From NCBI RefSeq assembly GCF_017348835.2, contig NZ_CP071375.1: a stretch of 64,000 nt of DNA. One strand, given 5' to 3'. The notes under the pieces were generated by a model. It was given only the letters and a program-made list of their open reading frames with translations, ran no database searches and was not told the origin of the DNA. The translations under genes were made by a program, and so were the position numbers. Shown here one piece after another: positions 1 to 32,543 of this stretch (position 1 is the first letter of the stretch; every line of letters begins with the position of its first letter). The DNA comes from Escherichia coli (lineage in GTDB: Bacteria > Pseudomonadota > Gammaproteobacteria > Enterobacterales > Enterobacteriaceae).

Positions 1-721
1 GCTGGTGGCGATTGGTTTTGTTCCGTGGTTTCGCCCACTGGCGGTGTGCCTGTTCAGTTTTGGTGTCGTGGTGCAACTGGCTTATGCCGCATGGCAAACT
101 GCGGGATTATGGCGCGGATCTCACCCTGAAGAAGCTACCACGCCTGGACTGTATCTGCCGACAGTTGCCAACAACTTTATCAGCGCAATGGCCTGTGGTG
201 CGTTGGGCTACACCGACGCCGGTCTGGTGTTTTTAGGCGCAGGCGTTTTCTCATGGCTAAGCCTTGAACCGGTGATCTTGCAGCGTCTGCGCAGTTCGGG
301 AGAATTACCCACGGCACTGCGGACATCACTCGGCATTCAGCTCGCTCCTGCGCTGGTGGCCTGTAGTGCCTGGCTGAGCGTCAACGGCGGCGAGGGTGAC
401 ACGCTGGCGAAAATGCTTTTCGGTTATGGACTGTTGCAACTGCTGTTTATGCTACGTCTGATGCCATGGTATCTCTCCCAGCCATTTAATGCTTCATTCT
501 GGAGTTTCTCGTTCGGCGTATCTGCACTGGCAACCACCGGTTTGCATCTGGGGAGTGGCAGCGATAATGGATTTTTCCATACACTGGCGGTGCCGCTGTT
601 TATCTTTACCAATTTTATTATTGCAATACTGCTCATCCGTACTTTGGCGCTTCTGATGCAGGGAAAATTGTTAGTCAGAACCGAGCGCGCCGTTTTAATG
701 AAAGCAGAGGACAAAGAATGA
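1..721 (+). CDS. tehA: TehA tellurite-resistance / TDT-family membrane transporter, C-terminal part (5' end outside window)
   Basis: Frame open from window start to TGA 719-721; multi-pass hydrophobic protein; stop overlaps the next ATG (ATGA) as in a tehAB operon. Confidence 0.9.
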
Positions 722-2290: not shown

Positions 2291-2316
2291 GCGCCATCGT
2301 TAGATGGCGCTTTTTA
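2291..2316 (+). terminator. intrinsic terminator downstream of ydcL
   Basis: GC hairpin gcgccatc-gtta-gatggcgc followed by TTTTTA, 9 nt after the ydcL stop. Confidence 0.7.
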
Positions 2317-2805
2317 TCCGGTGCGCCGTAAAACCCCGTCCTTCAGGGCGGGGATATAAGGCGCGGTTTTCCACCTAACAGGTGTTTGCTGTTGTTCAAT
2401 GTATTGGCGGATGACGGATATTGGCGCACCTCCGCAGCTACTGGCAAAATAGCCAGGACTCCACAAAACGCCTTTGTAGTAATACCTGACTGCAATATCT
2501 GGTCGATCTCGTCGCAGTAACCTACCCGATACGCCTTTGAGGCTGTTTACCAGACTGGATATCGCCAGTTTGGGAGGTTAGTTAATTAACAAATGGACGT
2601 GATCTGGTTCGCCATCCATTTCAACCAGTTCAGCTTCAAAATCAGCACATACATTTGAAAAGTAACTGCGTAGTTTTTCTGTCGCGTCATGGTCAAAAAT
2701 CTGGCGTCGGTATTTGGTGACAAAGACCAGGTGAACATGCATCAGGGAAACACAATGCCTTCCACGCCGGATATCGGTTTCTTTTTTCACAGACCAAAGT
2801 ATCAT
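2314..2805 (-). pseudogene. IS200-family TnpA (Y1 HuH transposase) interrupted by one in-frame TAA
   Basis: 75-aa ORF 2578-2805 with HuH-type motifs (HVHLVFVTKYRR, DHVHLL) stops at TAA; the same frame continues downstream with TnpA-like C-terminus (SLKGVSGRLLRR, LWSPGYFASSCGGAPISVIRQYIEQQ). Confidence 0.65.
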
Positions 2806-2812
2806 TTGACCT

Positions 2813-4021
2813 GTGAAACGATTACAGGCATTTAAATTCCAGTTAAGACCAGGTGGTCAACAGGAGTGTGAAATGAGGCGCTTCGCAGGCGCATGTCGTT
2901 TCGTTTTCAATCGTGCTCTGGCACGTCAGAATGAGAATCATGAGGCAGGTAATAAATACATCCCTTACGGGAAAATGGCTTCCTGGCTGGTTGAGTGGAA
3001 AAATGCCACTGAAACGCAATGGCTTAAAGATTCTCCCTCACAGCCATTGCAACAGTCACTGAAAGACCTTGAGCGGGCTTACAAAAACTTCTTCCGGAAG
3101 CGGGCTGCTTTTCCCCGATTCAAAAAGCGGGGACAGAATGATGCATTCCGCTACCCGCAGGGCGTTAAGCTCGATCAGGAAAACAGCCGTATTTTTCTGC
3201 CGAAACTGGGCTGGATGGGCTACCGGAATAGCCGTCAGGTCACGGGTGTTGTGAAAAATGTCACTGTCAGCCAGTCCTGCGGTAAGTGGTACATCAGTAT
3301 TCAGACAGAAAGTGAAGTATCCACTCCGGTTCACCCTTCAGCATCAATGGTCGGGCTGGATGCTGGCGTGGCTAAACTCGCCACGCTGTCAGATTGCACA
3401 GTCTTTGAGCCTGTAAACAGTTTTCAGAAAAACCAGAAGACGCTGGCGAGACTTCAGCGACAGTTAAGCCGCAAGGTCAAATTCAGCAACAACTGGCAGA
3501 AGCAGAAACGCAAAATACAGCGACTGCATTCCCGTATCGCAAATATCCGCAGGGACTACCTTCACAAAGTCACAACGACCGTCAGCAAAAACCACGCAAT
3601 GATAGTCATTGAGGATTTGAAGGTCAGCAACATGTCAAAGTCAGCAGCGGGTACGGTCAGCCAGCCGGGGCGCAATGTCCGGGCAAAATCAGGTTTAAAC
3701 CGTTCGATACTGGATCAGGGCTGGTATGAAATGCGCCGCCAGCTTGAGTACAAGCAGCTCTGGCGTGGCGGTCAGGTGCTTGCTGTTCCGCCAGCGTACA
3801 CAAGTCAGCGTTGCGCGTGCTGTGGTCATACAGCGAAAGAAAATCGCCTGTCACAAAGTCAATTCAGATGCCAGGTATGTGGATATACAGCGAACGCCGA
3901 TGTAAACGGCGCTCGTAACATTTTAGCGGCGGGGCACGCCGTTCTTGCCTGTGGAGAGATGGTGCAGTCAGGCCGCCCGTTGAAGCAGGAACCCACCGAA
4001 ATGATTCAGGCGACAGCCTGA
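2813..4021 (+). CDS. insQ: TnpB (IS605 OrfB family, RuvC-like RNA-guided nuclease)
   Basis: 402-aa ORF with GTG start; RuvC-I GLDAGV, RuvC-II IVIEDL, zinc finger CxxC...CxxC, Ruv[12 protein letters not shown]. Confidence 0.9.
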
Positions 4022-17487: not shown

Positions 17488-18002
17488 CCAATCGCGTCCG
17501 GTTCAGTGCGTTCGTCGAGTTGCAACTGCATAAATGTCAGATCCAGCCAGCGCCCAAATTTAGTGCCCACCTGCGGCATTTGTGCGGTGACGACAAATCC
17601 CAGCGACTGGTGCAGATGCAGCGAGGCCTGATTTTGCGATTCGATCCCGGCGACCATGACATGCTTCCCGCAATCCCGCGCTTCATCAATCAATCGGCTT
17701 AACAATTTACGCCCCAGACCTTTGCCCTGATGATCGGGATGGACATAAACCGAATGTTCCACGGTATGGCGAAAACCATCGAAACTACGCCAGTCGCCAA
17801 ATGAGGCATATCCCGTAACTACGCCATCTTCTTCACTTACCAGCACCGGATAACCTGCTATGGTCCGCGCTTCAAACCAGGCAATGCGGTTATCTGCATC
17901 CACCGTTTGGTCATTCCAGATAGCCGCCGTATACAACACGGCGTGGTTATAAATTTCCGCAATGGCAGCACAGTCGGCTTTGCGGGCAAAACGGATGGAC
18001 AT
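17484..18002 (-). CDS. mnaT: MnaT (YncA) GNAT-family L-amino-acid N-acyltransferase
   Basis: Start placed at MSIRFARKADCAAIAEIYN; the longer ORF to 18236 is probably not translated. Confidence 0.85.
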   Translation of the reverse strand: MSIRFARKADCAAIAEIYNHAVLYTAAIWNDQTVDADNRIAWFEARTIAGYPVLVSEEDGVVTGYASFGDWRSFDGFRHTVEHSVYVHPDHQGKGLGRKLLSRLIDEARDCGKHVMVAGIESQNQASLHLHQSLGFVVTAQMPQVGTKFGRWLDLTFMQLQLDERTEPDAIG

Positions 18003-18182
18003 GTCTGGCCTCAATAAAATAATGATGATGATGTTATCAATACTATCGAAAACAGCCCGAAGCAACGGATTCCTCGATGAAATTATTGCGTGTTGCAGAG
18101 GGGATGTGACGGCTGCAAACAAAACCAATCCCGTGAGCCTGCTACTATTGATGGATTCATGCCAAAAGCACAGGAGAGCATT

Positions 18183-19220
18183 ATGGGGCAACAAAAGCAG
18201 CGTAATCGACGTTGGGTTCTGGCCTCGCGTCCGCATGGCGCACCGGTTCCGGAGAATTTCCGTCTTGAAGAAGATGATGTCGCCACACCGGGTGAAGGAC
18301 AGGTGTTACTGCGCACAGTTTATTTGTCCCTGGACCCGTATATGCGTGGACGTATGAGCGATGAGCCATCTTATTCACCGCCGGTTGATATTGGCGGCGT
18401 GATGGTCGGCGGTACGGTGAGCCGTGTCGTGGAGTCGAATCATCCTGATTATCAGCCTGGCGACTGGGTGCTGGGCTACAGTGGATGGCAGGACTATGAC
18501 ATATCCAGTGGTGATGATCTTGTGAAACTTGGCGATCATCCGCAAAATCCATCGTGGTCGCTGGGTGTGCTAGGGATGCCAGGCTTTACCGCTTATATGG
18601 GCCTACTGGATATCGGTCAACCTAAAGAGGGCGAAACATTGGTGGTTGCTGCGGCGACAGGTCCTGTGGGAGCAACGGTAGGGCAAATCGGCAAACTTAA
18701 AGGTTGCAGGGTGGTGGGGGTAGCCGGTGGCGCGGAAAAATGCCGCCATGCTACCGAGATGTTAGGCTTCGATGTTTGTCTTGACCATCACGCGGATGAT
18801 TTTGCCGATCAACTGGCGAAAGCGTGCCCAAAAGGTATTGATATCTATTATGAAAACGTGGGCGGTAAGGTATTCGATGCGGTGCTACCGTTACTTAATA
18901 CATCTGCGCGCATTCCCGTTTGCGGCTTAGTGAGCAGCTATAACGCTACAGAGCTACCACCCGGTCCGGATCGTTTACCCCTGTTGATGGCAACGGTGCT
19001 GAAAAAACGTATTCGCTTGCAAGGGTTTATTATCGCTCAGGATTATGGTCACCGCATCCATGAGTTTCAGAAGGAGATGGGGCAATGGGTGAAAGAGGAT
19101 AAAATCCACTACCGAGAAGAAATTACTGACGGTTTAGAGAATGCGCCACAGACGTTTATCGGCCTGCTGAAGGGTAAAAACTTCGGCAAAGTGGTGATCC
19201 GCGTGGCGGGTGATGATTAA
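18183..19220 (+). CDS. curA: CurA (YncB) NADPH-dependent curcumin/dihydrocurcumin reductase (MDR family)
   Basis: Start at ATG 18183 preceded by AGGAGAG; medium-chain dehydrogenase fold. Confidence 0.88.
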   Translation: MGQQKQRNRRWVLASRPHGAPVPENFRLEEDDVATPGEGQVLLRTVYLSLDPYMRGRMSDEPSYSPPVDIGGVMVGGTVSRVVESNHPDYQPGDWVLGYSGWQDYDISSGDDLVKLGDHPQNPSWSLGVLGMPGFTAYMGLLDIGQPKEGETLVVAAATGPVGATVGQIGKLKGCRVVGVAGGAEKCRHATEMLGFDVCLDHHADDFADQLAKACPKGIDIYYENVGGKVFDAVLPLLNTSARIPVCGLVSSYNATELPPGPDRLPLLMATVLKKRIRLQGFIIAQDYGHRIHEFQKEMGQWVKEDKIHYREEITDGLENAPQTFIGLLKGKNFGKVVIRVAGDD

Positions 19221-19417
19221 AGTTTCAACGGCGGCGTAAGCCGCCATAAAAATCCAGGCAAAAAGCTTATTTTCAGCTTTAATTAACTAACCACGTCATT
19301 GTTCTGCTGCTAATAACAACAAAGGTGAGTGGTTTATGATTATTCACTTTAATACACCAGGTGAACTCCTTCTGCCATGCAGGCAGGGTTGGACAGAAAA
19401 CACGCGAAGGAATTAAA

Positions 19418-20083
19418 ATGCCTGGAACGGGAAAAATGAAACATGTCAGTTTGACTCTGCAGGTTGAGAACGACCTGAAACATCAGCTTAGTATTGGCGC
19501 ATTAAAACCTGGCGCACGCCTGATTACTAAAAATCTGGCGGAGCAATTAGGTATGAGTATTACACCTGTGCGTGAAGCATTATTACGTCTGGTTTCGGTG
19601 AATGCGCTTTCTGTCACACCAGCGCAAGCATTTACAGTTCCGGAAGTGGGGAAACGTCAATTAGACGAAATCAATCGGATCCGCTACGAACTGGAATTAA
19701 TGGCAGTTACTCTGGCTGTTGAAAACCTCACACCGCCAGACCTGGCGGAACTCCAGGAATTGCTTGAGAAATTACTGCAGGCGCAAGAAAAGGGCGACAT
19801 GGAACAAATCATTAATGCGAACAGGCTATTTCGCTTAGCGATTTATCATCGCTCAAATATGCCCATCCTGTGTGAGATGATTGAGCAACTGTGGGTCAGG
19901 ATGGGACCTGGTTTACATTATCTCTATGAAGTGATTAATCCAGCGGAATTACGGGAGCGTATAGAAAACTATCGTCTATTACTCGCCGCGTTAAAAGCAA
20001 AAGACAAAGAGGGATGCAGACATTGTCTTGCTGAAATTATGCAACAAAATATTGCTATTTTATACCAGCAATACAATCGTTAA
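19418..20083 (+). CDS. mcbR: McbR (YncC) GntR/FadR-family regulator
   Basis: Start at ATG 19418 preceded by GAAGGA; N-terminal HTH. Confidence 0.88.
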   Translation: MPGTGKMKHVSLTLQVENDLKHQLSIGALKPGARLITKNLAEQLGMSITPVREALLRLVSVNALSVTPAQAFTVPEVGKRQLDEINRIRYELELMAVTLAVENLTPPDLAELQELLEKLLQAQEKGDMEQIINANRLFRLAIYHRSNMPILCEMIEQLWVRMGPGLHYLYEVINPAELRERIENYRLLLAALKAKDKEGCRHCLAEIMQQNIAILYQQYNR

Positions 20084-20088
20084 AGTAA

Positions 20089-20110
20089 ATGCCCGGCAAA
20101 TACCGGGCAT
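20089..20110. terminator. hairpin between convergent mcbR and yncD (candidate bidirectional terminator)
   Basis: atgcccgg-caaata-ccgggcat perfect 8-bp stem; flanking U-tracts weak. Confidence 0.45.
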
Positions 20111-20118
20111 CAAGGTAA

Positions 20119-22221
20119 TTACTCAAATCGCCATGCGATATTCACGCCGACACCATAATTTCGCCCGGGCGCAGGTTCGTAATATCGCCCGTTTGACTCA
20201 TTGACAATGACAGAGCCAACGTATTCTTTATCGAATAAATTATCGACACGACCAAATAAATCCACAGTTAAATTGTGGTAATTGTATTTATACCCGGTGA
20301 ATAAGCCGACGAGAGTATAAGACGGCGCTTTGGCCGTATTTTCATCATCTGCCATAATATCGCCCATATAACGCGCTTCCGTGCCTGCATACCAACCATC
20401 TTCCGGTACATAACCTATCGACGCAAAGCCCATATTACGGGCGATCCCTGGCATCCGATTACCGTTACAATCCTGTTCGTTGCAAACATTGCTGCGATAG
20501 GTCGCATCAAGCCAGGTCCAGGACGCGTTTACGCGAAAATCTCCCGCGAAACGTTGATCCCATGCCAGTTCAGCGCCTTGACGACGGGTCTTTCCGGCAT
20601 TTTTGTAAGTCGTACGCCCACCGCTACTGCTATCGACAACAATTTCATCATCGGTGTCGGTCTGGAACAATGCGAGACTAAGCAGCCCATCACCAATACG
20701 CGTTTTACTGCCGATCTCAATTGTATCGTTGGTGGATGGTTTTAAACCAAAGTTCATACCGCTTTGCCCATCAGCGCGATAAGACAGCTCATTAATCGTC
20801 GGCGTTTCAAAACCACGCCCGGCTGCCAGATAGATATTCCAGGCATCGGTCATTGCATATTTTAACGATCCGGCTGGTAGCCATTTGTGGTAACTGGCAT
20901 CACCGCTGTCATCGCCGTTACCCGGAGTAATGTAATGGTCGTTGGAATCAAACCACACGGAGCTGTAGCGCACGCCAGCATCCAGCGACAGTTTTTCGCT
21001 CAGCTGCCACTGCGTCTGTAAATAGGGATCGATGTTCCACATCAGATTGCGTTCGTCGCGACGCAACTCACCTTTTTGCCCGTACTCCGGCATGCCGCTA
21101 TTCAGGCGGAAGTTATTGTAGCCCTTGCGGTTTTCACTCATGTTTTCGTAGTTCAGGCCGGTAGTGAACGTGACCGGAACGCCCAGTTCACCACGGTGTG
21201 TCCAGCGGCTGTCTATTCCCTGGTAATGGCGTTGCAGGGTAATCACGCCGCCCGCATGTGACGGGTTAAGTTGTGGTGCCATGGGTATTGACTGGTACTG
21301 GGTCGTTTCTCGCTCTCCGGCATACATCATCACACTCATATCATCCCGCGAACTCAGGCTACGTTCATAGCGCAACCCAGCCTGAGTTTGCTTGATGGTT
21401 TTTCGCGTGTCGTACTGTTCTGCACGAGGCGCTTGTTGTGGATTCGCCTTCCATTCTGCTTTGGTTAGCCCACCTGGGTCATCTGCTTTGATATCCACAC
21501 TATTGAAAATCAGGCTTAATTTGCTGGCTTCATCAATGCGTACGCCCAGTTTGGCATTGGCTAAATTTTTCTGTGCGCCACTATGGTCACGATATCCGTG
21601 GGTCGTAAAACGCGTGGTTGAGACGGTGTAATCAACATCGCCGGGCTGTGTGCCGTCTCCCGTTGCGCCCGTTGCTTTCAGCCCATAGCGCCAGCTGCCA
21701 AAACTGCCGTAGTAACTACTGGCTTCAATGGTTGGTGGCTGTTGTCCGGTCTGGGTGGTGACATTCATTACACCGCCAGACGCGTTGCCATACAGGGCAG
21801 AAAAGGGGCCACGCAGCACTTCCACATTTTGCACACTGCTTAAATCGATGTTGGATGTTTGCCCTTGCCCGTCGGGCATGGTGGCGGGAATACCGTCCAC
21901 ATACAGGCGAATACCGCGAATTCCGTAAGTGGAACGGGAGCCAAATCCGCGAATCGACAGCTGTAAATCTTGCGCATAGTTCTGCCGGTTTTGTACCTGC
22001 AAACCAGGCACGCCGGTCAGTGATTCGGACAAGTTAATGCGCGGTGTTGCCAGGCGCATCTCCTCGCCATCCTCCACGCTTACTGCTGCAGGGGTATCCA
22101 GTTCTGAAACCACCTGCGGCGCGGCACTGACAATCATGGTCTGTTCATCAGCGGCAAAAACAACGGGGGAAAGGACAAGCAGGGCGGGCAAAACGGTCTG
22201 TCGAACAAAAACAATCTTCAT
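20119..22221 (-). CDS. yncD: YncD TonB-dependent outer-membrane receptor
   Basis: 700-aa ORF with signal peptide and C-terminal terminal aromatic (…AWRFE) beta-barrel end. Confidence 0.92.
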   Translation of the reverse strand: MKIVFVRQTVLPALLVLSPVVFAADEQTMIVSAAPQVVSELDTPAAVSVEDGEEMRLATPRINLSESLTGVPGLQVQNRQNYAQDLQLSIRGFGSRSTYGIRGIRLYVDGIPATMPDGQGQTSNIDLSSVQNVEVLRGPFSALYGNASGGVMNVTTQTGQQPPTIEASSYYGSFGSWRYGLKATGATGDGTQPGDVDYTVSTTRFTTHGYRDHSGAQKNLANAKLGVRIDEASKLSLIFNSVDIKADDPGGLTKAEWKANPQQAPRAEQYDTRKTIKQTQAGLRYERSLSSRDDMSVMMYAGERETTQYQSIPMAPQLNPSHAGGVITLQRHYQGIDSRWTHRGELGVPVTFTTGLNYENMSENRKGYNNFRLNSGMPEYGQKGELRRDERNLMWNIDPYLQTQWQLSEKLSLDAGVRYSSVWFDSNDHYITPGNGDDSGDASYHKWLPAGSLKYAMTDAWNIYLAAGRGFETPTINELSYRADGQSGMNFGLKPSTNDTIEIGSKTRIGDGLLSLALFQTDTDDEIVVDSSSGGRTTYKNAGKTRRQGAELAWDQRFAGDFRVNASWTWLDATYRSNVCNEQDCNGNRMPGIARNMGFASIGYVPEDGWYAGTEARYMGDIMADDENTAKAPSYTLVGLFTGYKYNYHNLTVDLFGRVDNLFDKEYVGSVIVNESNGRYYEPAPGRNYGVGVNIAWRFE

Positions 22222-22356
22222 GAAAAAAGCCAGGTTAAGAATGGGAAAACACCGTCATGGTAATAAAATTGTAAATTTATGGAAAACGAAACGGCACTAT
22301 ACGTTAATTAATTGAGAAAATTGTAGTCGTAACGGCAAGAAATGCTCCACATTTGA

Positions 22357-22376
22357 GAAAATAATGATTACCATTC
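22357..22376. promoter_or_regulatory. candidate Fur box in the yncD-yncE divergent intergenic region
   Basis: gaaaATAATGATtAcCATTc resembles the Fur consensus GATAATGATAATCATTATC. Confidence 0.4.
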
Positions 22377-22462
22377 CCATTTATAACAAGAGCGTAACGA
22401 TGATTACGCTTAGCGAAGCATTGTGAAGCAGCAAAAATATCGGTTCATCAAAGGGAGTCGTC

Positions 22463-23524
22463 ATGCATTTACGTCATCTGTTTTCATCGCGCCTGCGTGG
22501 TTCATTACTGTTAGGTTCATTGCTTGTTGCTTCATCATTCAGTACACAGGCCGCAGAAGAAATGCTGCGTAAAGCGGTAGGTAAAGGTGCCTACGAAATG
22601 GCTTATAGCCAGCAAGAAAACGCGCTGTGGCTCGCCACTTCGCAAAGCCGCAAACTGGATAAAGGTGGCGTGGTTTATCGTCTTGATCCGGTCACTCTGG
22701 AAGTTACGCAGGCGATCCACAACGATCTCAAGCCGTTTGGTGTCACCATCAATAACACGACTCAGACGTTGTGGTTTGGTAACACCGTAAACAGCGCGGT
22801 CACGGCGATAGATGCCAAAACGGGCGAAGTGAAAGGCCGTCTGGTGCTGGATGATCGTAAGCGCACGGAAGAGGTGCGCCCGCTGCAACCGCGTGAGCTG
22901 GTAGCTGATGATGCCACGAACACCGTTTACATCAGTGGTATTGGTAAAGAGAGCGTGATTTGGGTCGTTGATGGCGAGAATATCAAACTGAAAACCGCCA
23001 TCCAGAACACCGGGAAAATGAGTACCGGTCTGGCGCTGGATAGCAAAGGCAAACGTCTTTACACCACTAACGCTGACGGCGAAATGATTACCATCGACAC
23101 CGCCGACAATAAAATCCTCAGCCGTAAAAAGCTGCTGGATGACGGCAAAGAGCACTTCTTTATCAACATTAGCCTTGATACCGCCAGGCAGCGTGCATTT
23201 ATCACCGATTCTAAAGCCGCAGAAGTGTTAGTGGTCGATACCCGTAATGGCAATATTCTGGCGAAGGTTGCGGCACCGGAATCACTGGCTGTGCTGTTTA
23301 ACCCCGCGCGTAATGAAGCCTACGTAACGCATCGTCAGGCAGGTAAAGTCAGTGTGATTGACGCGAAAAGCTATAAAGTGGTGAAAACGTTCGATACGCC
23401 GACTCATCCAAACAGCCTGGCGCTGTCTGCCGATGGCAAAACGCTGTATGTCAGTGTGAAACAAAAATCCACTAAACAGCAGGAAGCTACCCAGCCAGAC
23501 GATGTGATTCGTATTGCGCTGTAA
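22463..23524 (+). CDS. yncE: YncE periplasmic beta-propeller protein
   Basis: 353-aa ORF with signal peptide. Confidence 0.9.
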   Translation: MHLRHLFSSRLRGSLLLGSLLVASSFSTQAAEEMLRKAVGKGAYEMAYSQQENALWLATSQSRKLDKGGVVYRLDPVTLEVTQAIHNDLKPFGVTINNTTQTLWFGNTVNSAVTAIDAKTGEVKGRLVLDDRKRTEEVRPLQPRELVADDATNTVYISGIGKESVIWVVDGENIKLKTAIQNTGKMSTGLALDSKGKRLYTTNADGEMITIDTADNKILSRKKLLDDGKEHFFINISLDTARQRAFITDSKAAEVLVVDTRNGNILAKVAAPESLAVLFNPARNEAYVTHRQAGKVSVIDAKSYKVVKTFDTPTHPNSLALSADGKTLYVSVKQKSTKQQEATQPDDVIRIAL

Positions 23525-23607
23525 TAGATATGGCGAGGGTGAAAACGGAGAGACTTGCCTGACTTTTATCACGCCGCATGCGGCACCTTCGTCAGTAATC
23601 TAAATTT

Positions 23608-23630
23608 GCCCGGCACGTAGCCGGGCAATT
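23608..23630. terminator. bidirectional intrinsic terminator between yncE and ansP
   Basis: gcccggc-acgta-gccgggc flanked by AAATTT upstream and AATTTT downstream. Confidence 0.65.
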
Positions 23631-23636
23631 TTGCAA

Positions 23637-25136
23637 TTAGCTCGCCGTTTCAGGCTTAAACACAATTTCCTGTTTTTCTTCATCTTCCTCGACGACTGGC
23701 GCAGTGCTGTGAATTTCAGCAACGCGTTTGCGCACACCAAACCAGCCTATAACCAGCAGAATACCGATAATCGGCAGCGCCGCGATAGTATAAGTCCCGT
23801 TCGGGTAATCGAACGCCATCAGCACAAGGACACTCAGTAAAAACAGTAATGTCAGCCAGGAAGTGAAGGGCGCGCCAGGCAGTTTAAAACTGACATCCGC
23901 TGCTTTGCCTTCTTTAATCGCTTTACGCAGGCGCATCTGGCACACGATGATAAACGCCCATGAAGCGATGATTCCCAGCGACGCGAAGTTCAACACAATC
24001 TCAAATACGCGCGACGGCACCAGATAGTTGAGGAATACGCCGACGACATACACAACCAGTGTCGCCAGAATCCCGGCATACGGCACATGCTGACGACTCA
24101 TTTTCGCCATAAAACTCGGTGCGGAACCGCCCATCGCCATTGAGCGCAGAATACGTCCGGTGCAGTACAGACCTGAATTCAGGCTGGAGAGGGCAGCGGT
24201 CAGCACCACAATGTTCATAATGCTGCCGATATATGGCACACCCAGTTTAGAGAAAAACGTCACGAACGGACTTTGCCCCGCCTGATACGCGCTCCACGGC
24301 AATAACATAACCAGCAACACCACGGAGCCGACGTAAAACAGGCCAATACGCCAAATCACACTGTTAATCGCTTTAGGTACCATGGTCTGCGGATCTTTAC
24401 ATTCTCCGGCAGCTGTACCCACCATTTCAATGGAGGCAAAAGCAAACACTACGCCCTGAATCAACACCAGCGCAGGCAGCAAACCGTGGGGGAAGAAGCC
24501 GCCATTATCGGTGATTAAATGAAAGCCTGTGGTGTTGCCATCCAGCGGCTGACCACTACCGAGGAACACTGTACCTACGACCAAAAAGGTCACAATGGCG
24601 AGCACTTTAATAAGCGCAAACCAGAACTCCATCTCCGCAAACCATTTCACACCGATCATATTCATGGTGCCAACGATGGTAAGTGCAGCGAGCGCAAAGA
24701 CCCACTGCGGCACGCCGCCAAACGCACCCCAGTAATGCATATACAGAGCGACGGCGGTAATATCAACAATCCCCGTCATCGCCCAGTTGATGAAGTACAT
24801 CCAGCCAGCAACATAAGCGGCTTTCTCACCCAAAAACTCACGGGCATAAGAGACAAAACTGCCACTGGAAGGGCGGTGTAGCACCAGCTCACCCAATGCA
24901 CGCAGAATAAAAAACGAAAACAAGCCACAAATTAAATAAACCAGTGCCAGTGCTGGACCCGCCATTTGCAGTCGGGCTCCTGCACCTAAAAACAAGCCGG
25001 TGCCAATCGCGCCGCCAATGGCGATCATCTGTACCTGGCGATTGCCCATCGCTTTGTGATACCCCTCTTCGTGGGCATTAAGCCAGCGGCGTTTCGCGGC
25101 GTGTTGATCTGAAGTGTCGGTGTCGTGTTTACTCAT
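23637..25136 (-). CDS. ansP: AnsP L-asparagine permease (APC family)
   Basis: Start placed at MSKHDTDTSDQHAAKRRW; amino-acid permease fold. Confidence 0.9.
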   Translation of the reverse strand: MSKHDTDTSDQHAAKRRWLNAHEEGYHKAMGNRQVQMIAIGGAIGTGLFLGAGARLQMAGPALALVYLICGLFSFFILRALGELVLHRPSSGSFVSYAREFLGEKAAYVAGWMYFINWAMTGIVDITAVALYMHYWGAFGGVPQWVFALAALTIVGTMNMIGVKWFAEMEFWFALIKVLAIVTFLVVGTVFLGSGQPLDGNTTGFHLITDNGGFFPHGLLPALVLIQGVVFAFASIEMVGTAAGECKDPQTMVPKAINSVIWRIGLFYVGSVVLLVMLLPWSAYQAGQSPFVTFFSKLGVPYIGSIMNIVVLTAALSSLNSGLYCTGRILRSMAMGGSAPSFMAKMSRQHVPYAGILATLVVYVVGVFLNYLVPSRVFEIVLNFASLGIIASWAFIIVCQMRLRKAIKEGKAADVSFKLPGAPFTSWLTLLFLLSVLVLMAFDYPNGTYTIAALPIIGILLVIGWFGVRKRVAEIHSTAPVVEEDEEKQEIVFKPETAS

Positions 25137-26086
25137 TGCTCTCCCTGATTGCTTTAATGAAAAAGTCATATAAGTTGCCATGAACAATGTTTATTCATCC
25201 TGGCGATGATAGTTATCACCATTATTCTTTATGGGTATAAAACTATCGGCGCAGAATCCTACCTTTTATCGTGTAACGATGCAAAATAATCCCGCTATAC
25301 ATATGTGGGGATGAAGGCGGCGGCGACAAAATAGCAACCTGATGAAATTATGACGGAAACAACCACTATTAGTTTGATGATACCCGACTGCAGTCCAACT
25401 CTTTCGCCACTCGTTCGTCGCTCTGAAAGCCTGTGGTTGCAGTGGACACTGGTGTGGTTGGTCTTCGCTGTTTATCATTGAATAGTGAGGGGCTAGCACA
25501 TGACGGGTTTTAGGGGTAATACGCCAAATACCAATACAATTGCTGATTAGATGTGCCAGTTACCGACGTTACAGAAAGTGCCAAAAAATGTAAGAGGGAT
25601 GTCGGGTGATAAACGCGCTATTGCCCAACAGGAGTTTCTGGAATTAGTCCTGTTCCATGGTCATTACAACTCTTAAAACATTACTTCAATATAATTAATG
25701 TGTATATCATTCTCGATATTAATTTATGAAGTGAATTTGATATATTCCGAATTCTTAATTTACATTACTAATGTATGGGGCATAACGTTAAGATTGATAT
25801 GTGCAGATTAAGATATCAGGGTGGGGCGGTAGCGTTTACAGATATTAATCAATTGATGAGAATTATGTTAACTGCGTAATCATTTTCATCGGTTATTGAT
25901 ATTGAAGATAGATTAATAAAAATGCTGATAATTAATGTTAAGAAATAGAAATGGGAAACGTTGATAACTTGCTTTGATTTCATTTTCTATGAAGATGATG
26001 CCATCAATACTGTATAAAGTAAGAATGTTGAAAATCAAAGAGCGTTTGTGTTTTATCTGAAAGATATTATATCCAGGGGAAAGGAT

Positions 26087-26617
26087 ATGTCTTTAAGGAG
26101 AATGACATCTGGTGAATTAACATTGGCTAGATCGATTTTTGAGAATACAATTGATTATAGCAAGGTATGGATCCACAATGAAAAATATCTGCCTGGTCAA
26201 GGGGAAAGAACAGCGATGACCCCAAACGGGGAAATGTATTATCCTGATGCTGTTTATAGTTCAGATTATTCATCGCAAACAATGCCTGGTGATCGTGAAA
26301 CAGTAGCAGGTGCTTCTCACTTGTTTATTCATGAAATGATGCATGTTTGGCAATATCAGAAAGGGTATGCAGTTAAGTTGCGTGGTTTATTTTCCTGGGC
26401 GGCAAATTATCATTACGTTCTTAATTTACAGTCAATTTCTTCTTATTCCATGGAACAACAAGCATCTATAGTTGCTGATTATTGGCTATTGATTAACTAT
26501 GGACTGGTGGCTGATTTGGCAAATGTTAACTATGTAGGTGATACAACTGAATCAGTTAACACTCTATCGGAAAAATACAAAAAGGTGCTTAATTTATTTC
26601 CTGCGGGTGTCATATGA
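26087..26617 (+). CDS. DUF4157-like putative zinc metallopeptidase (HExxH); candidate polymorphic-toxin / T6SS effector domain protein
   Basis: ORF with HLFIHEMMHVWQYQ motif; start at ATG 26087 after AGGGGAAAGGA; lies in AT-rich DNA; absent from K-12 at this locus as recalled. Confidence 0.6.
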   Translation: MSLRRMTSGELTLARSIFENTIDYSKVWIHNEKYLPGQGERTAMTPNGEMYYPDAVYSSDYSSQTMPGDRETVAGASHLFIHEMMHVWQYQKGYAVKLRGLFSWAANYHYVLNLQSISSYSMEQQASIVADYWLLINYGLVADLANVNYVGDTTESVNTLSEKYKKVLNLFPAGVI

Positions 26618-26970
26618 AGAGGTTCTTTTTGTTTTTCTTTTTGTCGGGATGCACTGTTGGTGATTATGTTCGCCCATTGTTACCCGGTAATGTATATTTA
26701 CAAGATGGACGGGTTTGTTCAAAACCAGACGATGGAGATATTATTTCAAATTATATTTTATATGAAGGTAAATATGGCAATGCAATAAAGCTGAAAAGAG
26801 TAACAGGTCAGTTCGATCCCGTATGTATTGACATAAGTGAGCTATCTCCAGATGTTATTTATATCGGGCAATATATGCTCTCCTCCGGAAGTAAAAAAGA
26901 ATACTATGGTTTTAGGATAATTAGATCCGGAGTACGTATTTTAAGACTTGATGATAACCATATCAAATAA
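26614..26970 (+). CDS. small lipoprotein, candidate cognate immunity protein
   Basis: 118-aa ORF, signal peptide plus lipobox FFLSGC; ATG overlaps upstream stop (ATGA). Confidence 0.6.
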   Translation: MKRFFLFFFLSGCTVGDYVRPLLPGNVYLQDGRVCSKPDDGDIISNYILYEGKYGNAIKLKRVTGQFDPVCIDISELSPDVIYIGQYMLSSGSKKEYYGFRIIRSGVRILRLDDNHIK

Positions 26971-27190
26971 CAGATTAAAAATTTTATTAGTTTCATTAAT
27001 GTGCTTTAGGTGAATGTTTTCACCAGGTTAACATGACGGTGCATTCTTCAAGGCATATATGGTTGATAGTATCTTCAGTAGCTCGCATAAGTATTGAGAT
27101 GTTTTACGCCAGTTACGAATATATTGCATATTTTATTCTCTGTAAGATTTCTTATTAGCACTTAGCCATTTCTAGTTAAAAGGATTAATT

Positions 27191-29185
27191 ATGAGTTTTG
27201 CAGCTACAGATTATCCATCCGGCGCACTAACTGGATCGGGTACACATAACGTGACTTTGAGCGGCAGCGCAGTTCCTGATGGAATGTTACTGTTTGCAAG
27301 CTTAGGGGGTACAGAAACAGTAGGGGAACTATTTACTTATTCTATTAAATTAAAAACTCCTGACATCCTGAACCTGGGCTATGTTTCCCCTGCCGCAAAC
27401 CTGCAGCTCAAACCGATGGTGGGCAAAGATCTGTGCGTCCATATCGAACTGGATGGCGGCGGAAAACGTTATATCAGCGGGCTGGTGACGGCGGCACGCG
27501 TGGCTGGTCATCAAGGACGTTCGGTGGTGTATGAACTGCGGCTCGAACCGTGGTTAAAAATACTGACCCACACTAGTGACTACAAAGCGTTTCAGAATAA
27601 AAACGTGGTGGACATCCTGGATGAGGTACTGGATGAGTATCCCTGGCCAGTGGAAAAACGGCTGGTGGAAAATTATCCGACTCGCGCCTGGCAGGTGCAG
27701 TACGGTGAAACAGATTTCGCTTTTATTCAGCGCCTGATGCAGGAGTGGGGTATCTACTGGTGGTTTGAGCACAGCGAGAACAGTCACACGTTAGTGCTGG
27801 CTGATGCCATTAATGTCCACAAGGCATGCGCAGATTCGCCGCTGGTGTGTTATTACCAGAAAGGGCTGAAACTGGACAAGGAGTTTATCCATACCATCAC
27901 AGCAAATGAAAGTCTGCGCAGCGGACAGTGGGTGCTGAATGATTTCGACTTTATGAAGCCGCGTTCACTGCTGAAGAGCACCGTGGCTAATCCGCGTGAA
28001 ACCGGCCTTGCTGAATATGAGCACTACGAATGGCCGGGAGATTACTTCACAAAGAGTGAAGGTGAAATGCTGACACGCATTCGCATGGAAGAACAGCGTA
28101 GCCCCGGTAGTCGGGTACAGGGCAGCGGCAATATTCGTACCCTGATGACAGGTTTTTCCTTCACCCTGGAAAACTATCCGACAGCCGAAGTGAACCGGGA
28201 ATATCTGCTGGTACAGACCACGCTATTTATACAGGACAATGCGCAACACAGCGGCCAGGAGCAGCATTTCTCTTACTCAACCAGTTTTGAACTGCATCCC
28301 ACCAGCGAAGTTTACCGCCCACAACGAACCCTGAGTAAACCCCACACTAAAGGCCCGCAGAGCGCCATCGTCACCGGCCCGGCAGGGCAGGAAATCTGGA
28401 CAGATAAATATGGCCGGGTGAAAGTTCAGTTTGGCTGGGATCGTTACGGTAAGAATGACGAAAACAGCTCCTGCTGGGTCCGTGTCAGTTATCCGTGGGC
28501 GGGTAAAGGATTCGGTGGCATTCAGATCCCGCGCATTGGTCAGGAAGTACTGGTGGATTTCAAAAACGGTGATCCGGATTTACCGATAATCGTTGGGCGT
28601 ACCTACAACCAGGACACCATGCCACCGTGGGGACTACCGGGCGCAGCGACGCAAAGCGGGTTTTACAGCCATACTATCGGCGGCGGCCCAACCAATGCCA
28701 ACGCACTACGTTTTGAGGATAAACCTGGCGGTGAAGAGGTCTGGCTACATGCCGAAAAAGATCAGCGGATTGAAGTAAATAATAATGAAAGCCACTGGGT
28801 GGGCAATAATCGCCTTAAAGTCATTGATAAAACAGAAACAGCGATAATTGGTGAGGAACGTTCTCTTACAGTTCAGATGGATGATACCTCCCTTGCCGGA
28901 CAAAATAAAACGATTCAGGCCGTACAGAATTTACGCCTTGCTGCGGGAGATTCCATAATTCTTAGTTGTGGGAAAACTATCCTGCAAATGACCAGTGACG
29001 GAATATTTAATATAACCTGTAAGAATTTTAATATTACTGCAACAGAAAATGGAAAGATAAATACACAATCAGGTCAGCTTGATTTAAATATGAATGACAG
29101 GGCTGCAGATATACTTCCGCCTGGAGCATCGGAAAAAACAGCCCTTCAGTTGGCGATAGACGTCGCCTTCATGACTAAAAAATAA
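27191..29185 (+). CDS. vgrG: VgrG type VI secretion spike protein (orphan, Rhs-associated)
   Basis: 664-aa ORF with gp27/gp5-like VgrG signatures ([45 protein letters not shown]). Confidence 0.88.
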
Positions 29186-29235
29186 ATAAAAACCATCATT
29201 AAATAATTTATTAATTAAAAAGGACTCATATCATT

Positions 29236-29688
29236 ATGACGGAGTATTATCTCAATGAAACTGTTGTAACTTTTCCCGGGAATATTATTCAGGACAGCAC
29301 TATTAATATGCTGCGCCTCAGCGATCCCGACGCTGCACTCATTATCAGTCGGGGCCAGATGCAGGAAGGAGACGAATTAGCCTCCCAGATTGAACAGCAA
29401 ATGAAAAAACTGGAGAAACAGGTAAAGGATCTTCACTACACGCCCGTTCAGGTAACACGGGTAGGGATTAATGACGGTGAACAAGGGCTGGAAATACAGA
29501 GCCAGTTTCTCAGGGGTAACGAGCAGGTGTACCAGTGTCAGGTGGCATTTGTGTTGCCGGGTGAGCGAGTCATGATGGCCTTCACCTACGCCAGAACCAC
29601 ACCGCTGACCCCGGCAGATATGACGCGCTGGGCTGAAATTAAAAAGAATCTGCGCTTCAGGATGCGGCAGGAAGCCAGGACGAATTAA
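29236..29688 (+). CDS. DUF1795-family Eag chaperone for prePAAR effectors
   Basis: 150-aa ORF between vgrG and the prePAAR-Rhs gene, the canonical chaperone position. Confidence 0.7.
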   Translation: MTEYYLNETVVTFPGNIIQDSTINMLRLSDPDAALIISRGQMQEGDELASQIEQQMKKLEKQVKDLHYTPVQVTRVGINDGEQGLEIQSQFLRGNEQVYQCQVAFVLPGERVMMAFTYARTTPLTPADMTRWAEIKKNLRFRMRQEARTN

Positions 29689-29706
29689 TCATACAGGGAA
29701 CGGGAC

Positions 29707-31077
29707 ATGGAAGAGGCATTCTGGGCGGCAAGACAGGGTGATGCCCTGCTGCATACGTCGTTTATGGCAGATGTGCTGGGGGCGGTGCTGGAGGTGGCCG
29801 CAAATGTCGTTATTGATGCCCTCATTGTCGGCACAACCTCGTTACTGGCGACGTCAGTGGGGATCACGATGGGGTGCACGGCCGTCGTGCTGACCGGTTT
29901 TGTGGCGGGTGTGGCGATGGTGTACACCGGCGTGACAGAAAAGGTCAGCGAAGCCTGTTCAGCCCTCGCAAATATGCTTTTCCCGCCTCAGATTGAAGGT
30001 TACATCCTCACCGGCTCTGGTGACACATGGATCAACAGCAAACCTGCCGCGCGGGCAGCGGCTACTGCGGCATCGCGGCAGGACATTGAGGCGCAGGACG
30101 CGCAGGCGAAGGCGGAACAGGAAGAAGCGCAGCGTCAGGAGGATGCCAGAACGTTCCGGGATGTGGCCGGGGAATATCTGGAAATGGCGGGGGCCATAGC
30201 CCTGGCGGTTAACCCGGTGACAGGGCCTGTGCTGATGTCCCGGGCGCTGCACGACCAGCTCAGCACGGAAGAAGGGCGTTCTGAAATGGTGGATGGCGTG
30301 ACACATTTTGTGTCGGAACTATGGCAGCCCACTGTGGCCAGTGCGGCCCCGGGCTCCACCCCGACCCCTGACGATAAAATCGACTGCCATAAACATCCTT
30401 CCTCACTGACGCAGTTTCTCGCACAAAAAAAAGCCGCCTTTCTGGATGCCCCCCTGGGAACGGCCCTTAACCTGCTGAGTCCGGACGGTATGCTGGAAAC
30501 CGCCTTTCAGGGAGTGAATGCGGTTATTGGCAGCATCAGTAATCTGTTCAAAGGCGATGACGAGCCGCCCGCAGCGGAATATATCGCGGAAGGCGCGCGG
30601 GATGTGCGTATCAACAGCCAGCCGGCGGCACGCAGCGGGGCACGCTGTACCTGCGAGGCCAGGGTGGTGAATGAGCCGGGGAACGGGGCGTTTGTGTCAC
30701 CGGATGTGCGCATTGGCGGTCCGTTACTGGTGGCCAGGGATATCAGAAGCGGCAGGTCGCAGATAACCCTGGTGGCAACCGTGGCGCTGATGTTTCTTCG
30801 CCCGGGCAAAATGCTTTCTAAAATCGCCTGTTTTGCTGCCAGTGTCGGGATGAGCATGCTGACGCAGAAGGCCACCAGTGCCCTTCCGCATCCGGTCAAT
30901 GCCGCCACCGGGGCCAAATACCTGGCCGATGACGATGACTTCGATTTCAGTCTGCCGGGCCACTTTCCGCTGGACTGGCAGCGCGTGTACAGCAGTCGTG
31001 ACGAACGCACGGAAGGAATGTTTGGTCAGGGCTGGAGTGTGATGTATGAAGTCAGCCTCGTGCGCACACCGGGTATC
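29707..31077 (+). pseudogene. Rhs polymorphic toxin, N-terminal fragment (prePAAR, TM helices, PAAR, start of Rhs core) truncated by deletion
   Basis: prePAAR motif AARQGDALLH at residues 7-16; hydrophobic helices; PAAR-region homology (HPVNAATGAKYL...FGQGWS); reading frame then runs into nhoA-derived sequence. Confidence 0.75.
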
Positions 31078-31475
31078 GGTTGTTGCAGGAGGGTGATGAT
31101 TGGGTGTTGCAGTTTAATCATCATCAGCATTGGCAGTCGATGTACCGTTTTGATCTCTGCGAGCAGCAACAAAGCGATTATGTGATGGGCAATTTCTGGT
31201 CGGCGCACTGGCCGCAGTCGCATTTTCGCCATCATTTGCTGATGTGCCGCCATTTGCCGGACGGCGGCAAGCTGACACTGACCAATTTTCATTTTACCCA
31301 TTATGAAAATGGGCACGCGGTGGAGCAGCGAAATCTACCGGATGTGGCGTCGTTATATGCTGTGATGCAAGAACAGTTTAGTCTGGGCGTGGACGATGCG
31401 AAACATGGCTTTACCGTGGATGAGTTGGCGCTGGTGATGGCGGCGTTTGATACGCACCCGGAGGCGGGAAAATAA
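31078..31475 (+). pseudogene. nhoA: nhoA (arylamine N-acetyltransferase) 3' fragment lacking 5' half
   Basis: Translation LLQEGDDWVLQFNHHQHWQSMYRFD...THPEAGK matches the NhoA C-terminal region as recalled; no N-terminus or start codon present. Confidence 0.75.
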
Positions 31476-31479
31476 TTTA

Positions 31480-31550
31480 TGTCAGGTTGCCGGATGCGGC
31501 GTAAACGCCTTATCCGGCATACATTAGCCCGGTTGTAGACCTGACAGGCG
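31480..31550. repeat. REP element(s) between nhoA remnant and yddE
   Basis: gccggatgcggcgtaaacgccttatccggc core with flanking gtcagg/cctgac inverted repeat. Confidence 0.75.
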
Positions 31551-31570
31551 AAGCGCATCAGACAACGGTT

Positions 31571-32464
31571 TCAGAGTTCAATTGCCCATTCGGCATGAAA
31601 CAAAATCACCGCCGCGCCAGAAATGGTGACTTTTTCCGGTTGGTTATCACGAATTGTCACCGTCACTTCAATCACGCCGTCACGCCCCAATGCGCGCCCC
31701 TGATGGCCTTTAACACGCAGCACCTTGCCATCGTGGGGCAATACGTTGTGATGTACCAACCATGCACCCATCGGGCCATTGGCATTGCCAGTCACCGGAT
31801 CTTCCACAATACCAATCGCAGGCGAGAACATGCGACCATCGGTTTCGTTTTTGCCTGGGCGGATCTGGAACGGGAAGAAACCATTGCAGCCAATCTGTTT
31901 GCTGATAGCGCTCAGCGCAGCAAGATCAGGCGAAAGGGCGTCGATATCCACTTCTGGTTTCAACGGGATCATCACTTTTGAGTGTCCTGTTGTTGCCACC
32001 TGAATTGGCAAGCCTGCCAGAATATCGTCCTCAGTGAGATGAAGCGCGTTGATAATCGCCGCACGTGTTTCACCTTCCAGCGGTGGCTCAAAGCCCGGCG
32101 TACCTTGTTCCAGCGAAATACGATAATCATCGTTGTGCTTTTCGATAGTCACGCGATGTTTTCCTGCCAGTGACGTTTGCCAGATCGTGCAATTTCCTAA
32201 ACCTAACACCTTCGCACGTACATAGTGCGCAGCTACTGTCGCGTGACCGCAAATCGGCACTTCAACCGTTGGCGTAAAGTAGCGGATGCGCACATCGCTG
32301 TCGTCGCTGTGCAGCAGAAAAGCAGTTTCCGAATGGCCTAACTCGCGGGCGATAAGCTGCATTTGCGCTTCGCTAAGATTATCGGCGGGGAAAACAACAC
32401 CGGCAGAATTGCCGCGAAATGGTTGAGAGGTAAAAGCATCGACGTGGTAAACCTGCGGTTTCAT
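31571..32464 (-). CDS. yddE: YddE PhzF-family isomerase-like protein
   Basis: 297-aa ORF of PhzF fold family at K-12-equivalent position. Confidence 0.88.
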   Translation of the reverse strand: MKPQVYHVDAFTSQPFRGNSAGVVFPADNLSEAQMQLIARELGHSETAFLLHSDDSDVRIRYFTPTVEVPICGHATVAAHYVRAKVLGLGNCTIWQTSLAGKHRVTIEKHNDDYRISLEQGTPGFEPPLEGETRAAIINALHLTEDDILAGLPIQVATTGHSKVMIPLKPEVDIDALSPDLAALSAISKQIGCNGFFPFQIRPGKNETDGRMFSPAIGIVEDPVTGNANGPMGAWLVHHNVLPHDGKVLRVKGHQGRALGRDGVIEVTVTIRDNQPEKVTISGAAVILFHAEWAIEL

Positions 32465-32543
32465 TAACGTTCTCCTGTGGCTGGAGAACTATCATAGCCT
32501 GCAAGTGGCCGGAGAGCGAAGGGCTATCCGGCCAGGGTGAAAA

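Follow-up and report, generated by a model that had tools for sequence, protein, structure and literature searches.

When a vgrG gene, an Eag chaperone gene and an rhs gene stand together far from any other part of a type VI secretion system (T6SS), is the module a working auxiliary weapon or what is left of one? We asked this of a 64,000-nucleotide stretch of Escherichia coli DNA (contig NZ_CP071375.1; the window), in which a first-pass annotation had described an orphan vgrG / DUF1795 chaperone / prePAAR-Rhs module at 27191-31077 that looked decayed. We consider it very probable that the locus is a non-functional relic, namely a decayed auxiliary T6SS vgrG island of the ansP-nhoA interval, an island carried by many E. 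coli. Two separate lines of evidence carry this reading, the loss of the greater part of the rhs gene in a deletion that fused it to nhoA, and the loss of the T6SS core from another place in the same genome.

The rhs fragment and its junction with nhoA

The window can be read against an annotated genome, the chromosome of E. coli PE164 (NZ_CP114128.1). Positions 25200-31600 align with it from end to end at 100% identity, no base differs in 1-25158 or in 19200-37600, and the right-hand 32.5 kb contain 3 differences; because of this near-identity, the RefSeq annotation of PE164 is applicable to the window. Its genes run tehA … curA-mcbR-pqqU-yncE-ansP, then the island, then nhoA'-yddE-narVWYZ-narU … fdnGHI … ddpFD.

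What the window retains of rhs is its 5' end. Aligned with a full-length protein, 446 of the 456 residues of this stub (98%) are those of the N-terminus of the intact 1550-residue Rhs of strain NZ_OZ197100.1, in which a pattern search places DPIGL at 1411 and DPLGL at 1433; a toxin tail comes after them, and a small gene lies downstream. Rhs cage, DPxGL autocleavage motif and C-terminal toxin are all absent from the stub, whose RHS_core match covers only positions 34-104 of 1261; it corresponds to the N-terminal 29% of the intact relative, with about 1090 codons missing. No cognate immunity gene was found directly 3' of rhs either, the nhoA remnant and yddE standing where relatives have Imm8-family or other small genes. 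The earlier judgement that the toxin end is missing and the module decayed is thus borne out.

The surviving part has the N-terminal build of a class I prePAAR effector. Its prePAAR assignment rests on the exact motif, the Pfam prePAAR_I model giving only E = 0.86. By Kyte-Doolittle hydrophobicity (window 19), the transmembrane helices that had been predicted form a single hydrophobic block between prePAAR and PAAR, peaking at 2.2, and from residue 79 to the junction the value never exceeds 1.41. PAAR (PF05488) is matched at E = 2e-5 over residues 291-321, with a weak first half at residues 97-119, DUF6531 is matched at E = 2.9e-17, and the stub aligns, PAAR region included, with the solved Rhs effector 7q97 (E = 1.7e-53). 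Compared with 7q97, the PAAR region contains two extra segments (residues ~133-187 and 241-286), one of them highly acidic and charged (…AKAEQEEAQRQEDA…), and because of these segments the Pfam PAAR match is split into parts some 170 residues apart. They belong to the whole E. coli family, the N-terminus being 98% identical in the intact relatives examined. The order vgrG-Eag-prePAAR/transmembrane/PAAR-Rhs is that of class I prePAAR effectors, which combine an Rhs cage with one transmembrane region and are served by an Eag chaperone (Ahmad et al. 2020, PMC7773334), an architecture established together with structures (PMC7773334, PMC8765631, PMC8636562); the class I layout proposed by the first-pass annotation agrees with this.

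Immediately after the stub, the sequence continues as nhoA. Alignment to both parental sequences (rhs …CCGGGTA/GCGCAG; nhoA …GAGAGTA/TCGGTT) places the joint at a 3-bp microhomology, GTA, in unique sequence, with no insertion sequence (IS), mobile element or repeat there. Intact islands are collinear with window 25200-31075, and the middle of nhoA and beyond with 31065/31074-32500. The alignments show a single illegitimate-recombination deletion of at least 5.9 kb, joining rhs codon 457 to mid-nhoA at the GTA. Mapped on two references with the locus intact, its size is 12.3 kb against GF3-3 and 5.9 kb against NZ_OZ197100.1, which has a shorter array. The stretch present in GF3-3 and missing here comprises the Rhs body, an Imm8 immunity gene, orphan C-terminal Rhs toxin (Rhs-CT)/immunity modules, SymE genes, a GGDEF gene, a sulfatase pseudogene, pptA, yddH and the 5' half of nhoA; across relatives, the interval also holds a variable set of orphan toxin/immunity modules. 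With the Rhs cage and toxin, the deletion thus took the immunity gene, pptA and yddH as well as the first half of nhoA. On the near side of the joint, codon 457 (31075-31077) and the out-of-frame read-through append 36 unrelated hydrophobic residues (IGCCRRVMIGCCSLIIISIGSRCTVLISASSNKAIM) to the stub, and the fused open reading frame (ORF) ends at a stop at 31183-31185 with a total of 492 residues. On the far side, the nhoA remnant matches profile positions 151-281 of 281 of NF011621 (E = 5.9e-87). RefSeq labels the two pieces 'DUF6531 domain-containing protein, incomplete, missing C-terminus' and 'arylamine N-acetyltransferase, incomplete, missing N-terminus', so that both are already recorded as pseudogenes.

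To place the junction among other strains, we compared it with 5426 complete E. coli genomes. At least 80% of a 6.4-kb query is present in 187 of them, and intact versions of the island locus occur in at least 187 complete genomes; the junction is spanned in two only, PE164 (pig, Nanjing, China) and F2_81 (pig rectal swab, Australia). With a 500-nucleotide probe over the joint, all other genomes match only from probe position 46-50 on. The junction is real and belongs to a lineage. Since PE164 and F2_81, the only two carriers, are near-identical (10 base differences in 46.4 kb), the deletion is recent and marks one lineage, and the neighbouring genes are still intact because it is recent.

Spike, chaperone, upstream pair and T6SS core

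The genes upstream of the stub are, by contrast with it, complete. VgrG matches TIGR03361 (E = 2e-167, 557.9 bits against a cut-off of 186.35) and TIGR01646 (E = 8.7e-125), and its Pfam domains Phage_GPD, Phage_base_V and Gp5_trimer_C give it the gp27-gp5 hub architecture; it differs by a single residue from the copy in the intact-Rhs strain NZ_OZ197100.1. At the nucleotide level, the gene is about 83% identical to the vgrG fragment of the aspV island described below. Fifty nucleotides 3' of vgrG and 18 nucleotides 5' of the rhs start lies the eag gene, next to both a vgrG and a prePAAR effector gene. The 150-residue product of eag (WP_032280514.1, identical in strains with full-length Rhs) matches Pfam PF08786 (DcrB; E = 3.9e-19), the family once named DUF1795, as well as the crystallised chaperone SciW (PDB chains 6xrb, 6xrr and 9mvg; E ~7e-4). 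The sole NCBIfam output for this protein, RNase M5 (E = 0.007), was rejected as spurious, Pfam PF08786 having settled the family. The vgrG, chaperone and prePAAR-Rhs genes thus lie where the first-pass annotation had put them, each now tied to a named profile or structure, Table 1.

The extent that it gave stands in part. The start at vgrG is correct as the start of that gene; the Rhs-derived sequence ends at 31075 and the open frame at 31185, and the island itself begins further upstream, at 26087, with a gene for a 176-residue protein (mechanical start GTG 26048; RefSeq start 26087). This protein resembles the effector domain of Pseudomonas aeruginosa VgrG2b (PDB 6h56, E = 1.8e-20, query residues 4-138) and carries HEMMH, an HExxH zinc-binding motif, at residues 82-86. 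No significant family was found for it in Pfam or NCBIfam. In P. aeruginosa, the C-terminal domain of VgrG2b acts in the periplasm as a metallopeptidase toxin (Wood et al. 2019, PMC6899460). Overlapping the gene by 4 nucleotides is that of a 118-residue lipoprotein, which resembles NF045617, 'putative T6SS immunity periplasmic lipoprotein', below the curated cut-off (E = 3e-8, 33.8 bits against 43) and is likely the immunity partner of the metallopeptidase in the periplasm. All relatives examined carry the pair, in near-identical form (175/176 and 117/118 residues). Read in this way from homology and gene order, the full unit is a putative effector-immunity-vgrG-eag-rhs' island starting at 26087. 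The RefSeq name of the 176-residue protein, 'type IV secretion protein Rhs', is an apparent misnomer. Between ansP and the island lies an AT-rich spacer (25188-26086, GC ~0.35-0.40); no other part of the locus varies as much (17-53 differences per kb against relatives), and K-12 carries yncG and yncH in its place.

No T6SS core gene is annotated in the PE164 RefSeq annotation across the 64 kb of the window, as the first-pass annotation had noticed. The core was also sought elsewhere on the chromosome. In E. coli LF82 and other B2 strains, T6SS islands lie at aspV and metZWV (PMC2941450). At metZWV, the PE164 site is empty, with amiC, three tRNA-Met genes and then mltA, and the lineage has no T6SS-2. 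At aspV (3978472-3983883), PE164 has only tssA (ImpA family), tssG, tssF and an internal vgrG fragment, followed by Rhs debris. Our reference for this site was the near-complete T6SS-1 of LHM10-1 (pseudogene flags on tssL, tagJ and a small hypothetical gene), with the order tssA-G-F-E, tagJ, tagK, tssH, tssB, tssC, hcp, tssJ, tssK, tssL, tssM, tagF, effectors, vgrG, eag, rhs. Compared with it, PE164 is without 20.8 kb, from inside tssE to 96 nucleotides into vgrG, and with them tssH, tssB, tssC, hcp, tssJ, tssK, tssL and tssM; the vgrG 3' end, eag and the 5' part of rhs are also gone, a second deletion reaching into the rhs array. The aspV breakpoint is common to PE164 and F2_81 and was found in no other genome.

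A chimeric megablast query, made of a 500-nucleotide junction anchor and 300 nucleotides each of T6SS-1 tssC, T6SS-2 tssC and T6SS-1 tssM, matched the chromosome records of PE164 and F2_81 in one place each, through the anchor only. By this measure, neither of the T6SS types common in E. coli has a recognisable sheath or membrane-complex gene in the lineage. The complete core (TssA-M, Hcp) that a functional auxiliary module would need appears not to be present on the PE164 chromosome.

Two other strains considered as intact T6SS-1 references proved to be decayed themselves. In XJ34, clpV is fused to rhs fragments: a truncated AAA-family ATPase gene abuts them (37065-38036 of the stretch compared), at the place where LHM10-1 has tssH/clpV. 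In NZ_OZ197100.1, a resistance island of ~26 kb with IS1/IS26 at its borders (mer operon, TEM-1, sul2, aph genes, aac(3)-IId, dfrA17, intI1) interrupts the aspV cluster (7292-33788 of the stretch compared) and tssM is frameshifted; the T6SS of this strain is probably also dead.

Table 1 Features of the island and the junction (window coordinates; residues refer to the Rhs stub)
Feature	Position	Strand	Basis
Putative stand-alone metallopeptidase effector gene, 176 aa, first island gene	26087..26617	+	6h56 similarity, HEMMH, WP_053883764.1
Lipoprotein gene, 118 aa, lipobox LSGC, Cys13	26614..26970	+	NF045617 below cut-off, lipobox
vgrG (tssI), 664 aa, intact spike gene of auxiliary island	27191..29185	+	TIGR03361, TIGR01646, Pfam
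eag chaperone gene (DcrB/DUF1795 family), 150 aa, intact	29236..29688	+	PF08786, SciW similarity
Class I prePAAR Rhs effector gene, 5' fragment, codons 1-456 of ~1550	29707..31075	+	motif, Pfam, 7q97 alignment
prePAAR AARQGDALLH, exact AARxxDxxxH	aa 7-16 (nt 29725-29754)	+	motif match
Transmembrane region	aa 17-78 (nt 29755-29940)	+	Kyte-Doolittle
Split PAAR	aa ~97-119 and 287-330	+	Pfam, 7q97 alignment
First Rhs-shell segment, DUF6531	aa 395-452 (nt 30889-31062)	+	Pfam
Deletion junction, GTA 3-bp microhomology	31073..31075	.	alignment to both parental sequences
Out-of-frame nhoA read-through	31076..31185	+	translation, frame arithmetic
nhoA 3' remnant (N-hydroxyarylamine O-acetyltransferase), C-terminal ~132 codons, last 400 nt	31076..31475	+	NF011621

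Readings of the remnant

Judging from homologues, an Eag dimer would, in the intact island, shield the N-terminal prePAAR and transmembrane part of the Rhs protein, whose PAAR domain would cap the trimeric VgrG spike and whose cage would carry the C-terminal toxin. The T6SS-1 encoded at aspV would fire this spike into neighbouring bacteria, the downstream immunity gene would protect the producer, and the upstream metallopeptidase and lipoprotein would form a second, periplasm-acting effector-immunity pair. Since toxin, immunity gene and firing machine are all lost, the module would now be a relic from which nothing is secreted, and the vgrG, eag and effector ORFs would still be open because the deletions are recent.

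Several points weigh against this view. The vgrG, eag, metallopeptidase and immunity genes are all intact ORFs, which alone could suggest continued use. Three 300-nucleotide megablast probes against the chromosome would miss a divergent (T6SS-3 type) or plasmid-borne system; moreover, none of the listed rows shows more than one place as a positive control for the chimeric probe, and from the overall figures (7277 places in 5423 records, up to 7 per genome) it follows only that the probes match elsewhere. Finally, that this VgrG would have worked with the aspV T6SS-1 is something we infer from the 83% nucleotide identity and the same gene order.

The intactness of the upstream genes could also mean that the remnant is kept for immunity, the lipoprotein of 26614-26970 protecting a disarmed strain from the metallopeptidase of its armed relatives. 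Such retention is conceivable, in that the effector-immunity pair is as complete here as in relatives and immunity genes without a working weapon are known in E. coli (PMC6730261), but we regard it as unlikely: the Rhs immunity gene was lost in the very same deletion, so that protection is no general rule, and recent deletions account equally well for the intactness. The lipoprotein gene may nonetheless be the sole plausible residual benefit of the locus, against armed relatives.

One could further speculate that the 492-residue stub is kept, along with vgrG and eag, both intact, to give a T6SS of this strain a spike tip that lacks a toxin but still supports firing, given that all N-terminal loading elements are still present in it. 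We give this very little credence. The sheath, tube, membrane-complex and ATPase genes of T6SS-1 are deleted and no T6SS-2 sheath gene was found, the end of the stub is junk sequence made by the deletion, and the open frames are explained by recency, PE164 and F2_81 being so close. In Enterobacter, the Rhs cage itself is reportedly required for T6SS activity, which also counts against a tip that has none. It is likewise highly improbable that the stub is still made, held by Eag and capping VgrG, whether as a toxin-independent tip for a divergent T6SS or as a protein active on the membrane of its producer. A natural short PAAR protein was considered and rejected.

Rhs loci are repeat-rich and often misassembled, and the rhs-nhoA joint might on that account be an assembly error in a genome whose true Rhs locus is intact; this we practically discount, since the same junction recurs in the complete genomes of two strains from different continents, assembled independently, and since it lies in unique sequence at a clean 3-bp microhomology, between flanks collinear with other E. 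coli. Equally hard to credit is a gene naturally split into neighbouring prePAAR/PAAR and Rhs-cage ORFs that cooperate, as in SF0266/SF0267, where chaperone binding is retained (Ahmad et al., PMC7773334), because nothing Rhs-like follows the stub, only nhoA codons ~150-281, yddE and narVWYZ, the 36-residue tail is out-of-frame nhoA, and some 1090 codons are absent together with the immunity gene.

The island among its relatives

The decayed island is of a kind already known. In E. coli, vgrGO1-eagR(DUF1795)-PAAR-Rhs-CT modules (Ma et al. 2017, as outlined in PMC6730261) and the vgrG islands of enterohaemorrhagic strain EDL933 (PMC7216683) share with it the species, the gene order and a site away from the main cluster, and these vgrG-eagR-rhs islands depend on VgrG and EagR (PMC6730261, PMC7216683); here, in contrast, rhs breaks off after codon 456 and runs into nhoA, toxin and immunity gene are lost, and deletion has removed the presumed cognate T6SS core. 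The stub shares with Rhs1-SciW of Salmonella Typhimurium and RhsA-EagR1-VgrG1 of Pseudomonas protegens (PMC7773334; Günther et al. 2022, PMC8765631) the AARxxDxxxH motif, one transmembrane region, PAAR, the start of the Rhs shell and adjacent Eag and vgrG genes, although only the N-terminal 29% survives in the window. Shigella flexneri SF0266/SF0267 (PMC7773334) likewise has a prePAAR/PAAR ORF apart from the Rhs body; in Shigella that body is the next ORF, whereas in the window strain it is deleted. As for the upstream pair, the 176-residue protein aligns with P. aeruginosa VgrG2b (6h56, PMC6899460) over 135 residues, shares its HExxH and is followed by a lipoprotein gene, but it is free-standing, while the VgrG2b metallopeptidase is a domain fused to VgrG; effector activity and pairing are putative here.

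The K-12 rhsE pseudogene (b1456) occupies the same interval, between ansP and nhoA, and is likewise a decayed Rhs element. In K-12, the interval has an rhsE fragment, ydcD and H-repeat genes without vgrG or eag, whereas the window strain has the 5' end with both and is without the rest. By megablast, the K-12 ansP-pptA interval resembles neither the window nor the intact NZ_OZ197100.1 locus, and the link to rhsE is positional only. Among other relatives, the Rhs of GF3-3 is frameshifted (24507-29135 of the stretch compared), and KW21 (17980-25126 of the stretch compared) has an internal stop in vgrG, an Rhs frameshift and a primase/XerC element inside its orphan-toxin array. Decay at the ansP-nhoA island is common and independent across strains (GF3-3, KW21, K-12).

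Some further features of the window and genome lie apart from the island. A low-GC stretch (40991-44835, 0.32-0.41) contains the type III secretion effector gene espR1, a truncated leucine-rich-repeat paralogue and a gene with a frameshift that is annotated as porin OmpC; this stretch suggests that the strain carries the type III secretion system (locus of enterocyte effacement, LEE) of attaching-effacing E. coli. At 2314-4021, an IS200/IS605 tnpA pseudogene with an internal stop lies beside an intact insQ (TnpB-family RNA-guided endonuclease). A selenocysteine insertion sequence (SECIS) element (RF01989, 84.3 bits) inside fdnG, at 46789-46847, is expected for the selenocysteine codon of formate dehydrogenase-N. 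Rfam gave no match in the island region, and a consensus promoter/terminator scan of 25100-31700 was uninformative, with 18 promoter-like sites against 10.9 ± 3.2 expected and none compellingly placed. The window region and the aspV island have the same orientation in PE164 and opposite orientations in F2_81. By gene order and the K-12 map, the PE164 orientation is presumably the inverted one, which points to a large inversion about the terminus, either in PE164 itself or in the assembled sequence.

The sequence of the module is already in RefSeq with pseudogene flags, and what is added here is at the level of the strain: where exactly the break lies, how far the deletion extends, that a further pair of genes stands upstream, and that the T6SS core was lost in parallel. 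Beyond such strain bookkeeping, the significance is small. As collateral of the deletion, nhoA, pptA and yddH are absent or inactivated, and the unique rhs-nhoA junction can be used as a lineage marker. In PE164, calls of vgrG, eag or 'PAAR-Rhs' presence do not equate to T6SS competence. The locus offers a clean example of self-disarming, in which a pig-associated lineage sampled in China and Australia lost its T6SS-1 core and its Rhs toxin end by separate deletions.

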